From Escherichia phage UB, in the sequence record MH383160: DNA of 64,000 nucleotides; one strand, 5' to 3'. Shown here one piece after another: positions 25,894-40,222 of this stretch (positions are counted from its first letter, which is position 1; the number at the start of each line of letters is the position of its first letter). Both the position numbers and the translations under genes were made by a program. The notes beneath the pieces were generated by a model, which was not told the DNA's origin, did not search any database, and saw only the letters and a program-made list of their open reading frames with translations.

Positions 25894-25995
25894 GTGTAGT
25901 TCTCCTTATATTCCTTCTATAGTACACCAGTACTGAAAGGATGTCAAGGGTTTTCTTTATGGGGTAAATATGATATAATGAATAAGGAGGGAAAT
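25894..25995. promoter_or_regulatory. Divergent promoter region between the Family-A array (-) and the leader-tagged array (+)
   Basis: Minus strand TTGACA...AAGGAG...ATG; plus strand TATAAT (25974..25979), AAGGAGG SD (25984..25990), ATG 25996. Confidence 0.55.
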
Positions 25996-27132
25996 ATGTT
26001 ACCTTTTGCAAGAATGATGAATTATGGGAACGTAGCACCAGATAAACTAAAAATACGTGATATTGTTGCAGGTGCTAATTCATTATTACTAATAACAGAG
26101 GATAATGAATTATGGGTGCGTGGTAATAATGCGTATGGCAAATTAGGTATAGGAACTGATACTATAGTGAATGTAACCGAGTGGACTAAAGTTAGAGATG
26201 ATGTTAAGTTTGCTTGTGCTAGTAATTTAGTATGCGTTGTATTAACTGTAGATAATAAAATTTTATACTGTGGTGATGAATGGTTTGAATCTGGTGGTTC
26301 GACAAGTTCTAAAGTTGTTACATGGAAAGATGTTACGACACAATTTAGTGCAGTGAATCTAAGCACAGTTCGTGAAATGAAAATAACTTATTATTGTGTA
26401 GGATTACTTACAAATGATAATAGATTATATGCTAAAGGATATGATAATAACCAATCATTTGGTGGTTCAACAAGCAAAGTTAATGCTGTATTAGTTGCGT
26501 CAAATGTTTCAAAATTCTACACTTCTCTATCTGGTACTATATATTCTAGTACTACTGGTGGTTACTATCGCTGTGGTATAAGCAATACTGGAGCATTGGG
26601 TACTAGCACAAATTTAACTTCTTATAATTTGTACTCTGCTCCCGAATTTGCATCCGAATGTGCAGTTGGTATGTCAACATTAAACTCTGGTATATTATAT
26701 TATGATACTAATGGTATCACTAGATATGTTATAGCAGGTCAAAATAGAAATTATCAACTAGGTAATTCTTCTTCAAATACCACAAACGTATATTCGTATA
26801 CAGAATTAACCGGATATAGAGGCAGGTTTAGGGATTTGTGGAGTGATATGAATAACTCTGTTCTTTCTTTTGCTATAAGCACAGATGGCAATACTTTATA
26901 TTATGCTGGTACTAACAATACACTATCTTCTGGTGATCCTGGTGTTGAATATTCATCTGCATTCAAAGAAGTACCACACGGGTTTAATGATATAACAAAG
27001 GCGGCATCGTTAGCATATCTATCTATAGTGCAAGATTCAACGGGATGGTATTATTCTGGAAATGCAACTACGTTATATGGTTTGCCATCGAGTGGTGAAT
27101 TTATACCATTACCATTACCAACATTAATTTAA
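25996..27132 (+). CDS. Leader-tagged RCC1-like repeat protein, paralog 1 (378 aa)
   Basis: Start at MLPFARMMNYGN, preceded by AAGGAGG; repeated Y..G.N..GQLG-type motifs (KLGIGTD, YAKGYDNNQSFGGST, NYQLGNSS). Confidence 0.85.
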   Translation: MLPFARMMNYGNVAPDKLKIRDIVAGANSLLLITEDNELWVRGNNAYGKLGIGTDTIVNVTEWTKVRDDVKFACASNLVCVVLTVDNKILYCGDEWFESGGSTSSKVVTWKDVTTQFSAVNLSTVREMKITYYCVGLLTNDNRLYAKGYDNNQSFGGSTSKVNAVLVASNVSKFYTSLSGTIYSSTTGGYYRCGISNTGALGTSTNLTSYNLYSAPEFASECAVGMSTLNSGILYYDTNGITRYVIAGQNRNYQLGNSSSNTTNVYSYTELTGYRGRFRDLWSDMNNSVLSFAISTDGNTLYYAGTNNTLSSGDPGVEYSSAFKEVPHGFNDITKAASLAYLSIVQDSTGWYYSGNATTLYGLPSSGEFIPLPLPTLI

Positions 27133-27138
27133 ATATAG

Positions 27139-27169
27139 GCCAGTACTTGATACTGGCTTTCTTTTTTTT
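27139..27169 (+). terminator. Rho-independent terminator of the cassette
   Basis: GCCAGTACttgaTACTGGC followed by TTTCTTTTTTTT; recurs with near-identical sequence after paralogs 2, 3, 4, 5, 6, 8, 10 and 11. Confidence 0.7.
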
Positions 27170-27170
27170 G

Positions 27171-37721: not shown

Positions 37722-37792
37722 ATTTTATGCCAGTACTTAACACTGGCTTTTCTTTTTGATTAAATATAGTATAATGAATAAAGGAGGATTTT

Positions 37793-38998
37793 ATGTTACC
37801 TTTTCCAAGGATGATAAAATACGCAAATAAAATGAAAGTTCCTGAAGTGAAAGAAATCTTTATTTACAATGGTTATAGTGCGTCAGTTATTCCAGCAACA
37901 GCACTCTTACTATTATATAAAAATGGAGACTTAATGGGTATAGGTGGAACTAGTTCACAAAACTATGGATTCGGAAATGGTGTACCTAATGCGAAAGTAA
38001 AAGAGTGGACTTTAATATACCAAAATGTAAAACGTTTTAGAACAGCCCAAGGTTCTTTTAATTTAATCCAAACCGAAGATAATAAATTTTATTACAGTGG
38101 CGTAGGTAGAGCTATTGGTACAGGATTAAGTACTGTCAGTACTTATACTGATTGTACTTCATATTTTACATCAGTATTCAATGCAACACAATTGTCCCAA
38201 ATTAAGGACATTCAAATTGTAGGGGAGGGTATTTTTGTTTTACTTCAAAATGGTACGCTATATGGAATGGGGGCCAATACACAGGGATATTTTGGTAATA
38301 ACACAACCACAAGATTATCAACATTTACTTCAATTAATACGAATGTGGATAGTGTAAAAACAGGTTCAAGTGCAGTGATTGTACAGAAAATTGATAAAAC
38401 ACTTTGGGTCACTGGTCAAAACACATGGGGTTCACTTGGTATAAGCAATGGTGAAACTAACATTAGAGTATGGACACAAATGGGTGCATTAGCCAACAAT
38501 ACTGTTATACATTATGAACTTGGTGGGAGTGCATCATGGGTTGTATCTAAACACAACACGAATAATACATATACAGTTCGTGCAAGTGGGATTCAATCGG
38601 AAGGTAACTTGGGTAATGGTTCAGCCGCTTCATCAGGGACAGTATTATCTACAATCTCCACTCTACCAATATCCGATAATATGGAAATGAAATCAAATTC
38701 ATTAACATATGGTGGGCTTACGGTTAAAACTACCAATTCACTTTATATGTGTGGTATAAACACATATGGTAGGCTCGGTCGCGGTAATACAACATCAAGT
38801 ACTACATTTGTAGTTCCAGTTGATGCACCTAAAGTTGGCAGCATCGAGTTATTCTGTCCAAGTGAATGTACAAATGTGTATATGGATAATCAAGGGGATG
38901 TGTATTTGAGTGGCTATATCCCACAAGCGACAGGTACAACAGTTTCTGATTATTACACTAAATTTCAATTATATAAAATACCCAGTCGTGGTATATAA
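37793..38998 (+). CDS. Leader-tagged RCC1-like repeat protein, paralog 11 (401 aa)
   Basis: MLPFPRMIKYAN; GINTYGRLGRGNTT. Confidence 0.85.
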   Translation: MLPFPRMIKYANKMKVPEVKEIFIYNGYSASVIPATALLLLYKNGDLMGIGGTSSQNYGFGNGVPNAKVKEWTLIYQNVKRFRTAQGSFNLIQTEDNKFYYSGVGRAIGTGLSTVSTYTDCTSYFTSVFNATQLSQIKDIQIVGEGIFVLLQNGTLYGMGANTQGYFGNNTTTRLSTFTSINTNVDSVKTGSSAVIVQKIDKTLWVTGQNTWGSLGISNGETNIRVWTQMGALANNTVIHYELGGSASWVVSKHNTNNTYTVRASGIQSEGNLGNGSAASSGTVLSTISTLPISDNMEMKSNSLTYGGLTVKTTNSLYMCGINTYGRLGRGNTTSSTTFVVPVDAPKVGSIELFCPSECTNVYMDNQGDVYLSGYIPQATGTTVSDYYTKFQLYKIPSRGI

Positions 38999-39069
38999 AA
39001 TAAAGCCAGTATTTTGTACTGGCATTTTTTTGTCCTAAATATAATAACGATTTACATTTGGAGGATACA

Positions 39070-40222
39070 ATGCTACCCTTTGGAAGAATTATCACATCAT
39101 CAAAAAAGAACATACAACCTTCTGTTACAAAAATAGCTTCATCTGATACAACAGTTTTTGCCCTTATGTCAGATGGTACGTTGTACAGTAGAGGCTCTCA
39201 AGAGTTTGGGCAAATGGGTATAGGTAATATTATAACACAAACCAAATGGGTTTTGTGCAATACAAACGTAGAAGATCTATGGGTTCGGGTATGAGTCAAC
39301 ATTAATTAAAAAGAAAGATAATACGATGTGGTATGCTGGAAATGGTGCATCATTCGGTTTATCAACTGATAAGTCAACAACGTGGGCTTCTGCAAAGATA
39401 GTGTTTGATAGAATAACAGCACTTGGAAAAACAATAAAACAAATTGCAGTTAGTGCAGGTGCATTAAGCGTATTATGTACAGACAACACGATATGGAATA
39501 CGGGTTATGGTAGTTATGGACAACTGGGAAATGGTAGAAGTACCGATTCACTTTCATCATTTGTACAAGGAACAGTACCTACTGGAGTAACACCATCCAA
39601 AATACTGGCAAATTTTCTTATGCAAGGATTTATTGGAACCGATGGGAGATTGTATTATACTGGTGCAATATCAGGCGTAGGTACAACCGACATGACGTTA
39701 TATTCAAAGTACACGTTATGTTCTCAAATAACTAATACCTATACGGTGAAAGATTATACAACAAACTCAAGTTACTTCGCTTTTGCTATAGCAAGTAATA
39801 ATAGTACTAATAAATTATTTGCATATCATGGTGGTGGACAATACTTTGGTCAGTTAGCAAATGGTTCTACATCACAAACATATATTTCGTTAAGACAAAC
39901 AACACAAGCACCAGGTGATATAATAAGAAGCAGTGTGGGTTATTCATATTTTTCTAATCATATTATAACTTCATTAGGTGTTTACGCAACTGGTTATAAC
40001 ACAGGCGATAACGCAGGTCAATTGGGTATAGGTACACAAACAGATGTGTCGGCCTATACCAAATGTGTACTACCAATAGAGATGAATATGAATAACGTAT
40101 ATGTTACAGCAACTTTATACAGAACTTACTTAACCGATGGTATACAAATTTACAGTACTGGACAAAATATTACAGATGGCGGTATTGCCAGTACTGTATT
40201 TGTCAAAGATTCACCATTTTAG
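39070..40222 (+). pseudogene. Leader-tagged RCC1-like repeat gene, paralog 12 (divergent leader MLPFGRIITSS), interrupted by a 1-nt frameshift near 39285
   Basis: Frame 1 ends ..NVEDLWVRV* at 39294; the next frame continues KIYGFGYESTLIKKKDNTMWYAGNG...; dropping one base in GTTCGGGTA fuses them. Confidence 0.6.

Follow-up and report, generated by a model that had tools for sequence, protein, structure and literature searches.

A shared twelve-residue leader on divergent, virion-associated proteins of Escherichia phage UB and related jumbo phages: a candidate docking tag on exchangeable, putative adhesins

Within a 64-kb stretch of the genome of Escherichia phage UB (the window), positions 25894-40222 hold a tandem array of twelve plus-strand genes, nearly all coding for RCC1-like propeller proteins. 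Eleven begin with almost the same twelve residues, a leader that related jumbo phages carry on proteins of unrelated fold, and published proteomes repeatedly place these tagged proteins in the virion. The reading we favour, with some reserve, is that the array specifies a repertoire of accessory virion proteins, probably on the outside of the particle, in which a portable docking peptide is joined to exchangeable adhesins. Each protein would consist of the common N-terminal 12-mer, M-[LI]-P-F-x-R-h-h-x-Y-G-N (h, hydrophobic), a proline-containing linker and a ligand-binding body.

That RCC1 genes form a multigene family in these phages is already known, as are their annotation and the detection of their products by mass spectrometry (MS). 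A multi-copy family was noted in phAPEC6 (eleven copies; PMC7247149) and in 121Q (121Q_234-248) and PBECO4 (PMC5259590), and the GenBank labels for these genes are 'regulator of chromosome condensation' or 'putative DNA condensation protein'. The phAPEC6 and 121Q genes are the same family at the same locus as those described here; the two papers cover copy number, the RCC1 domain and MS detection, without the leader, the tagged bodies that are not RCC1, the intergenic cassette or the recombination pattern. A full-text search found, within the library searched, no paper on the shared leader, and no description in that literature of the tag on unrelated folds, its statistical link to the virion, the cassette or the breakpoint pattern. 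A sequence-only reading of the window had been unable to place the array in a described T4-type phage system. That has to be corrected, as the genes are an annotated and published family, which goes part of the way to what that reading had named as its refutation, a known family with an assigned function; the function assigned is a guess derived from a name.

Genes of the array and their bodies

A six-frame scan of the window with a regular expression for the leader gave 11 matches, all on the plus strand and all within the array, starting at 25996, 27205, 28385, 29625, 30884, 31694, 32908, 34093, 35362, 36552 and 37793. The consensus in these genes is MLPF[AGP]R[ML][VMLI][KN]Y[GA]N, and a conserved ribosome-binding site (RBS), AAGGAGG, lies 5-8 nt 5' of the MLPF ATG. 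Twelve tagged genes had been proposed from sequence; eleven of them stand, while in the twelfth the tag has decayed and the gene is frameshifted. Longer open reading frames (ORFs) from 25978, 28223 and similar positions are in-frame upstream extensions of leader genes. The members of the array, numbered g1 to g12, are as follows.

g1, 25996..27132, plus strand: leader MLPFARMMNYGN and RCC1-like propeller, 378 aa
g2, 27205..28314, plus strand: leader and RCC1-like propeller, 369 aa
g3, 28385..29572, plus strand: leader and RCC1-like propeller, 395 aa
g4, 29625..30812, plus strand: leader and RCC1-like propeller, 395 aa
g5, 30884..31621, plus strand: leader and TNF-like/glycine-rich domain (Gly_rich_2-type family), 245 aa; the window's only non-RCC1 member
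g6, 31694..32836, plus strand: leader and seven-bladed RCC1-like propeller, 380 aa; the paralog chosen for modelling
g7, 32908..34083, plus strand: leader and RCC1-like propeller, 391 aa
g8, 34093..35280, plus strand: leader and RCC1-like propeller, 395 aa; RBS and leader upstream, without hairpin or promoter
g9, 35362..36541, plus strand: leader and frameshifted RCC1-like gene, 35362-36171 (269 aa) with the out-of-frame rest at 36128-36541
g10, 36552..37721, plus strand: leader MLPFGRMLKYGN and RCC1-like propeller, 389 aa; RBS and leader only upstream
g11, 37793..38998, plus strand: leader MLPFPRMIKYAN and RCC1-like propeller, 401 aa
g12, 39070..40222, plus strand: decaying RCC1-like pseudogene with degenerate leader MLPFGRIITSSKKN, the YGN gone, and a frameshift (39070-39294 / 39272 or 39326-40222)

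As the region upstream of g8 has neither hairpin nor promoter, this gene is probably co-transcribed with g7. The frameshift of g9 is common to 121Q, JP4 and phAPEC6; programmed frameshifting was considered and dismissed, no slippery site being visible, and the frameshift is therefore treated as a fixed mutation.

Pfam detects RCC1 repeats or an RCC1-like domain in each of the nine intact paralogs, and also in the g9 and g12 fragments. Most of the intact paralogs exceed the cut-off for RCC1 and/or RCC1_2; for g4 and g10 the matches to the repeat models were sub-threshold, but WD40_RLD matched (E 1e-15). Identity among the nine averages 83% in the leader and 31% in the bodies (range 26-40%). The AlphaFold2 model of g6 is a propeller of about 27 strands (predicted local distance difference test, pLDDT, 89; predicted template-modelling score, pTM, 0.86), and its best Foldseek match is UVR8 (6dd7_A; E 1e-19; template-modelling, TM, score 0.76), followed by the RCC1-like domains of RPGR, RCC1 and HERC2, so that the propeller fold suggested from sequence is recovered. 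The phage proteins are like the RCC1-like domain proteins (RCC1, UVR8, RPGR, HERC1/2 and bacterial ATS1/COG5184) in their hidden Markov model matches to the repeat, in the seven-bladed propeller and in TM scores of 0.75-0.77 to UVR8. They are unlike them in being only 15-20% identical, tag-bearing and virion-associated, and their near-neutral charge and interchangeability with lectin and Kelch bodies argue, indirectly, against a Ran guanine nucleotide exchange or chromatin/DNA-binding function. A C-terminal x-x-L-P motif reported from the sequence is real, but it reduces to a single near-invariant proline of the fold, sitting after the last propeller strand (P376 in g6); it is absent from the non-RCC1 members and is no second tag.

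The protein of g5 gave no Pfam match, and its glycine-rich profile matched no PDB sequence. Fold comparison alone ties it to fibre tips: its body has a TNF-like and a polyglycine-rich domain, as in Pam3 gp24 and gp38-like tips. In Pam3 gp24 these domains come after an N-terminal baseplate-docking domain (PMC9608196), and in g5 the tag stands in that position. Compared with the gp38-type adhesins of S16/T2 and with Pam3 gp24 (PMC9608196, PMC3157838), the 12-aa tag stands where those proteins have an N-terminal helical attachment domain, and this type of fold is present in only one of the twelve window genes.

For residues 1-20 the AlphaFold2 pLDDT is 52-64 in g6 and 44-66 in g5, compared with 89 and 92 overall. 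The models thus directly support a leader that is predicted to be flexible and to lie outside the folded body.

Portability of the leader and its presence in virions

In all, 119 distinct tagged proteins were collected, and metagenomic arrays add more of like kinds. At least five body types bear the same leader: RCC1, Kelch, an RCC1+Kelch fusion, Laminin_G_3/ConA-like lectin and Gly-rich bodies are found, along with several unassigned proteins of about 170-260 aa. Pfam made no assignment for four small body families (clusters 1, 4, 5 and 7), and the LamG-like signature in these is our own reading only. No enzymatic domain was found in any tagged protein profiled, nor a beta-helix domain in the tagged bodies, and the bodies are near-neutral (median isoelectric point, pI, 6.7; net charge -4 to +7; S/T/N/G/Q 40-51%). 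Sequence comparison directly supports a leader that appears interchangeable between unrelated folds. Homologues of the Gly-rich g5 in other phages, such as Salmonella phage PVPSE1, have a different conserved N-terminus, MLE[ML]L, so that tags at the N-terminus have been exchanged on one and the same body. The MLE[ML]L sequence may itself be a second, lineage-specific docking tag.

The distribution of the tag was scanned with a degenerate DNA pattern over the IMG/VR and JGI/ENA metagenomes. Multi-copy tagged arrays were confined to phage contigs of about 350-380 kb and fragments, including 121Q, GAP32 and CBB. Most isolated matches to the pattern fell in short ORFs or on Met codons inside unrelated ORFs and were set aside as chance; a few were genuine fragments of tagged genes. 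In CBB (KU574722.1), a lone tagged gene at about 173.0-173.9 kb, evidently CBB_247, lies between genes for a recombination endonuclease subunit and endonuclease VII; its body is weakly LamG-like, with Laminin_G_3 below cut-off. Since CBB_247 stands alone and far from the array, cassettes can apparently move out of it.

Evidence on the virion comes from published proteomes, those of phAPEC6 by electrospray ionization tandem MS (PMC7247149 Table 1) and of CBB (PMC5259590), with enrichment assessed by a hypergeometric test. The 62 virion proteins listed for phAPEC6 include gp003, 005, 006, 007, 009, 010, 549 and 551 (PMC7247149). All eight are leader-tagged, so that eight of the ten annotated tagged proteins are in the list (P = 6e-7). 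They include orthologues of g6 (gp005, 85% identical), g7 (gp006, 82%) and g10 (gp010, 98.5%), as well as the orthologue of g9 (gp007, 99.6%), a truncated protein of 269 aa and 30 kDa that is still detected (PMC7247149 Table 1); for these four genes the virion proteomics that had been suggested as a check is positive. CBB has no RCC1 gene at the locus but ten tagged genes (CBB_247, 536, 537 and 548-554), and eight of their products (CBB_247, 536, 537, 548, 549, 551, 552 and 553) are in its virion list (PMC5259590; P = 2e-7). GAP_001 of GAP32 also bears the tag and is MS-verified according to PMC5259590. The leader thus co-occurs with virion incorporation, and as this holds whatever the fold of the body, the tag predicts virion association.

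Three further tagged genes of phAPEC6 (MK817115.1), orthologues of g2, g4 and g5 at 2434-3543, 6063-7253 and 7325-8059, are unannotated or mis-annotated, and their products may therefore be missing from the proteomics database; the first, an unannotated ORF, is 99.5% identical to g2. The same record repeats 350178-352535 at 3-2360.

Virion presence could be a matter of contamination, the tagged proteins having their role in the infected cell, for instance as binders for host takeover, with the tag as a chaperone, degradation or localisation signal. The phAPEC6 virion list does contain clear non-structural proteins, and the array is flanked on both sides by blocks of small, early-type opposite-strand genes. 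We nevertheless judge this improbable: two distantly related phages, purified independently, each yielded eight of ten tagged proteins, with GAP32 adding one, MS coverage of tagged proteins reached 50% in CBB, and the folds are those of extracellular and tail proteins.

The published suggestion is that these are RCC1-type DNA condensation proteins that organize the 350-kb genome inside the capsid. It was based on the name of the RCC1 domain (PMC7247149), and the presence of the proteins in virions agrees with it, but it is hardly tenable in view of several other observations. RCC1-like propellers are generic scaffolds, and UVR8, RPGR and HERC2 are as close to the phage proteins as RCC1 is. The net charge given above, in bodies rich in S, T, N and G, is no recommendation for such a role, the same tag and locus bear Kelch, lectin and fibre-tip bodies, and the CBB locus is without RCC1. 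Copy content also varies between near-identical phages, which would be unexpected for a core packaging function.

The intergenic cassette, the leader codons and exchange of bodies

Alignment of the regions 5' of the genes brings out a module of about 100 nt whose conservation ends abruptly after codon 12. It consists, in order, of a G+C-rich hairpin (GCCAGTAC-loop-TACTGGC), a T-run, TTAAATATAGTATAAT, the AAGGAGG RBS and the 36 nt encoding the leader. Its copies in the window are listed below.

25968..26031, plus strand: first cassette; promoter-like box, RBS and leader, no hairpin upstream
27137..27240, plus strand: type cassette; hairpin GCCAGTAC-TTGA-TACTGGC and T-run, TTAAATA/TATAGTATAAT promoter-like box, AAGGAGG, 36-nt leader
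28321-28420, 29558-29660, 30819-30919, 31627-31729, 32843-32943, 35297-35397 and 37729-37828, plus strand: further full cassettes
34082..34128 (g8) and 36541-36587 (g10), plus strand: short cassettes of RBS and leader
39005-39105, plus strand: degenerate cassette

Terminator-like hairpins are found 3' of genes 1-6, 8, 10 and 11, and such hairpins number 22 compared with 6.5 +/- 2.7 in shuffles. The 12-mer TATAGTATAATG has eight exact copies, all in the array (expected, 1.95 +/- 1.45 with at most one mismatch over the whole window), and an independent repeat search returned a family of 10 copies. The cassette occurs in 43 phage records at 5-16 copies per genome, including distant ones at 73-85% identity. 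Its promoter-like box has a perfect TATAAT, with no -35 element at 16-18 nt, and an overlapping TTAAATA similar to ATAAATA, the reported late consensus of CBB and GAP32 (PMC5259590).

The nearest described counterparts are the PeSLs (promoter-early/stem-loop elements) of T4-type phages, which are mobile regulatory cassettes (PMC2839356, PMC4122927), in which a terminator hairpin and a promoter are likewise repeated between the genes of a hyperplastic region, and the breakpoints of indels and replacements between related genomes likewise coincide with the motif. Unlike PeSLs, the coliphage repeat also takes in the RBS and codons 1-12, and only one gene family has it; the class of its promoter is ambiguous. 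Because it includes the first 12 codons, recombination within it also preserves the protein tag.

Given such a repeat, the leader might be no more than the by-product of a DNA or RNA element, a promoter and translation-initiation cassette homogenized by gene conversion. In the window the block is indeed unbroken from hairpin to codon 12, its synonymous sites are near-uniform (the 36-nt leader is 89% identical), and recombination breakpoints fall at its edges. Tagged arrays of EJP2, Salmonella phage 7t3 and Erwinia phage Kaldavass were extracted, and codons were compared across 47 leaders from four phages. P3, F4 and Y10 are invariant in all 47 leaders, with the proline encoded by CCT (26), CCA (17) or CCG (4) and the tyrosine by TAT (24) or TAC (23). 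G11 is present in 43 of the 47, with four codons, and R6 in 40, encoded by AGA, AGG, CGA or CGT; N12 is nearly invariant. The ten leaders of a 366-kb metagenomic genome (consensus MIPFARISKYGN) contain 17 extra synonymous codon types compared with three extra amino-acid types, and the 30 nt upstream of them are only 35% identical. Synonymous sites thus vary freely outside the window, across and within genomes, while the residues stay fixed. The peptide is also kept where the intergenic cassette is missing, as in 7t3 (in which many tagged genes overlap), CBB, Kaldavass and, within the window, g8 and g10. In the pseudogene g12 the YGN half of the leader is gone. An origin of the leader as a by-product is very improbable on these grounds. 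It is a separate module under protein-level selection, and the earlier picture of a shared anchor fused to divergent binding domains holds in that the 12 N-terminal residues behave as a module of their own.

Leader positions 2 and 5-9 have residues that are uniform within a genome and specific to it, as would be expected from co-adaptation to a single acceptor. Positions 5 and 9, with i/i+4 spacing, vary most, and the g6 model has a weak helix over residues 4-11. A search of the leader against the PDB gave no match at E up to 10.

Megablast of 25894-40222 returned 36 phage records, all of jumbo phages, 310-386 kb long, from Escherichia or Salmonella, among them JP4, 121Q, PBECO4, G17 and phAPEC6 (genus Asteriusvirus); coverage of the query stays below 80% in every record. 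The description of phage UB as T4-type, in the strict sense, has therefore to be dropped: it is a 121Q/PBECO4-type jumbo coliphage (Asteriusvirus, in the Rak2-like group), a distant relative of the T4 type. Orthologues of g2, g4-g7, g9 and g10 in phAPEC6 are 82-99.6% identical to the window genes. Relative to JP4, 121Q and phAPEC6, homology blocks have edges at 26030, 27135, 28421, 29558, 34082, 35298, 36590 and 37815, and all eight coincide with codon 12 of a leader or with a hairpin or stop codon. Similarly, 20 of the 20 megablast matches listed have their starts at an intergenic cassette or immediately 5' of the first gene. In JP4 the body of g1 is replaced by another (breakpoints 26030 and 27135), while 121Q and phAPEC6 lack the body of g3 (28421 and 29558) and g8 (34082 and 35298). 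The body of g11 is absent from phAPEC6 and is replaced relative to 121Q and phAPEC6. With breakpoints at both edges of the cassettes, whole bodies have evidently been swapped. In the coliphage lineage each gene would then come as a self-contained unit with its own terminator hairpin, promoter, RBS and leader, and the direct repeat of about 100 nt would serve as a site of homologous recombination, through which bodies may be gained, lost and swapped between co-infecting relatives.

Docking on the particle or packaging into the capsid

On the docking hypothesis, the leader would bind one conserved acceptor site on the particle, and one virion would carry a mixture of at least eight different binding modules. 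The acceptor site may well be external, on the tail or on hair-like fibres, making the modules auxiliary adhesins or host-range determinants. A place on the outside is favoured by near-neutral lectin jelly-roll and propeller bodies with many S, T, N and G residues, and by g5, in which the tag takes the position that the baseplate-docking domain has in Pam3 gp24. Hair-like appendages have been seen on these phages, and the hairs of CBB end in tiny globules (PMC7247149, PMC5259590). That the hair fibres are made of RCC1 proteins can be rejected, as CBB is hairy yet has no RCC1 (PMC5259590); given its ten tagged non-RCC1 proteins, tagged globules on the fibres are possible. Of the three roles left open by the sequence-only reading, receptor binding is thus preferred, and an injected effector is kept as a lesser candidate.

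The closest parallel for docking is found in the secondary receptor-binding proteins of podophages that infect Klebsiella (KP32, K11 and KP34), whose docking peptide binds the T4gp10-like branching domain of the first receptor-binding protein, RBP1 (PMC13352976). There, too, a short N-terminal peptide is common to otherwise unrelated binding proteins, separable from the fold and transferable to foreign bodies; it is dispensable for folding, required for virion incorporation and gives multivalent virions (PMC13352976). The Klebsiella peptide is 29 aa long and unrelated in sequence, and its cargo is a trimeric beta-helical depolymerase, one per phage. The jumbo phages, in contrast, have a 12-aa tag on 8-16 mostly monomeric-looking propeller or lectin modules, and no trimeric depolymerase or tailspike was found as cargo. 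Synteny with the tail-fibre/depolymerase cluster of RaK2 was also considered, but no positional homology can be claimed: RaK2 has nrdD/nrdG and similar genes as flanks, and the window array has an NrdC.10-like nucleoside triphosphatase (NTPase), a CapR-domain endonuclease, denV and membrane-protein paralogs. The fibres of RaK2 are anchored by domain-type anchors (PMC10253068).

Several points tell against docking on the outside. Mass spectrometry cannot separate the outside of the capsid from the inside. To our knowledge, monomeric RCC1 or Kelch propellers are not established as phage receptor-binding proteins. The promoter box can be read as a sigma-70 -10 element (TATAAT) or as a T4-like late element (TAAATA). 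The phAPEC6 virion list includes thymidylate synthase, a RecA-like protein and a topoisomerase, implying some carry-over of abundant proteins, and GAP32 has tagged proteins, yet is not described as hairy. Twelve residues are also short for the anchor of an exposed protein, validated docking peptides having about 29 aa (PMC13352976).

The main alternative is a place inside the head. The T-even internal proteins are a diverse set (IPI, IPII, IPIII and Alt) with only a short N-terminal capsid targeting sequence (CTS) in common (PMC3012670), and the leader might be a signal of the same kind that directs its bearers into the prohead core, to be ejected with the DNA as a variable set of effectors or anti-defence binders. 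We consider this unlikely, though deserving of serious attention. In both cases a leader of about ten residues is the sole common part of a hypervariable, virion-carried set in a phage of the T4 superfamily, at a locus that differs between close relatives. The tagged jumbo phages retain T4-like head genes including the prohead core protease (phAPEC6 gp227c, PMC7247149), the tagged proteins are virion-associated at low peptide counts, and hypervariability between close relatives fits an arms race as well as it does host range. The leaders and the cargo, however, do not correspond. Cleavage by the T4 prohead protease, gp21, takes place with Glu at P1, and no conserved Glu or cleavage-type position is seen at the end of the leader, where position 9 is K, E, T, N, Q or D and no residue within positions 1-20 is invariantly acidic. 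The leader is also not known to resemble the T4 CTS in sequence. The T4 cargo is one of small basic inhibitors and enzymes; the 119 tagged proteins include neither enzymes nor small basic proteins (their pI agrees), but large jelly-rolls, propellers and a Gly-rich tip, folds whose solved relatives are all external tail parts. A variant in which the tag is a cleavage-independent packaging code, loading propeller, Kelch and lectin binders into the capsid for injection, is a rather long shot. If true, the injected library would be a phage analogue of a secreted effector repertoire directed at host proteins or glycoconjugates, and evolving by cassette exchange.

Should the tag prove to be a universal docking peptide, it would explain how these jumbo phages can bear ten or more different binding modules simultaneously, a set that simple homologous recombination could remodel. 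It would provide a 12-residue portable handle for displaying foreign proteins on the jumbo-phage particle, or packaging them into it, and a concrete, testable way to work out the components of the 'hairy' appendages on phAPEC6, 121Q and CBB. The misleading 'DNA condensation' annotation, which has spread through more than 30 genome records, is corrected.

The neighbourhood of the array has some features of its own. Directly upstream, at 21493-25893 on the minus strand, are about 20 tandem small paralogs of 59-82 aa that start with MHKEYY or MNKEHKEFY and end with LIFRY or LIYRH; all three that were tested match phrog_11711 (function not assigned). The GC skew of 22001-26000 is strongly positive (+0.18 to +0.20) despite the minus-strand genes, and every other minus-strand block in the window is negative. 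Hydrophobic, membrane-like paralogs of 104-141 aa lie directly downstream (40907-43687, minus strand), three of which match phrog_27618, 27396 and 19454, and a membrane-like neighbour also adjoins the tagged array in JP4, CBB, Kaldavass and EJP2. Beyond them on the minus strand are genes for the NrdC.10-like P-loop NTPase (43753-44523), the CapR-homology endonuclease (44950-46413) and a denV-type pyrimidine-dimer glycosylase (47461-47976); tblastn with the first of these proteins hit 1309 T4-like phage records and was uninformative. A very charged (E, K, D) protein of 515 aa without leader (53747-55294, minus strand) matches phrog_20398, 'virion structural protein', in four stretches and might be an internal head or scaffold-type protein. 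In CBB a few hundred bases separate the end of the array from the edge of the 22-kb terminal repeat, and the arrays of GAP32 and phAPEC6 straddle the ends of their records; the tagged locus may adjoin the physical terminus of the genome.

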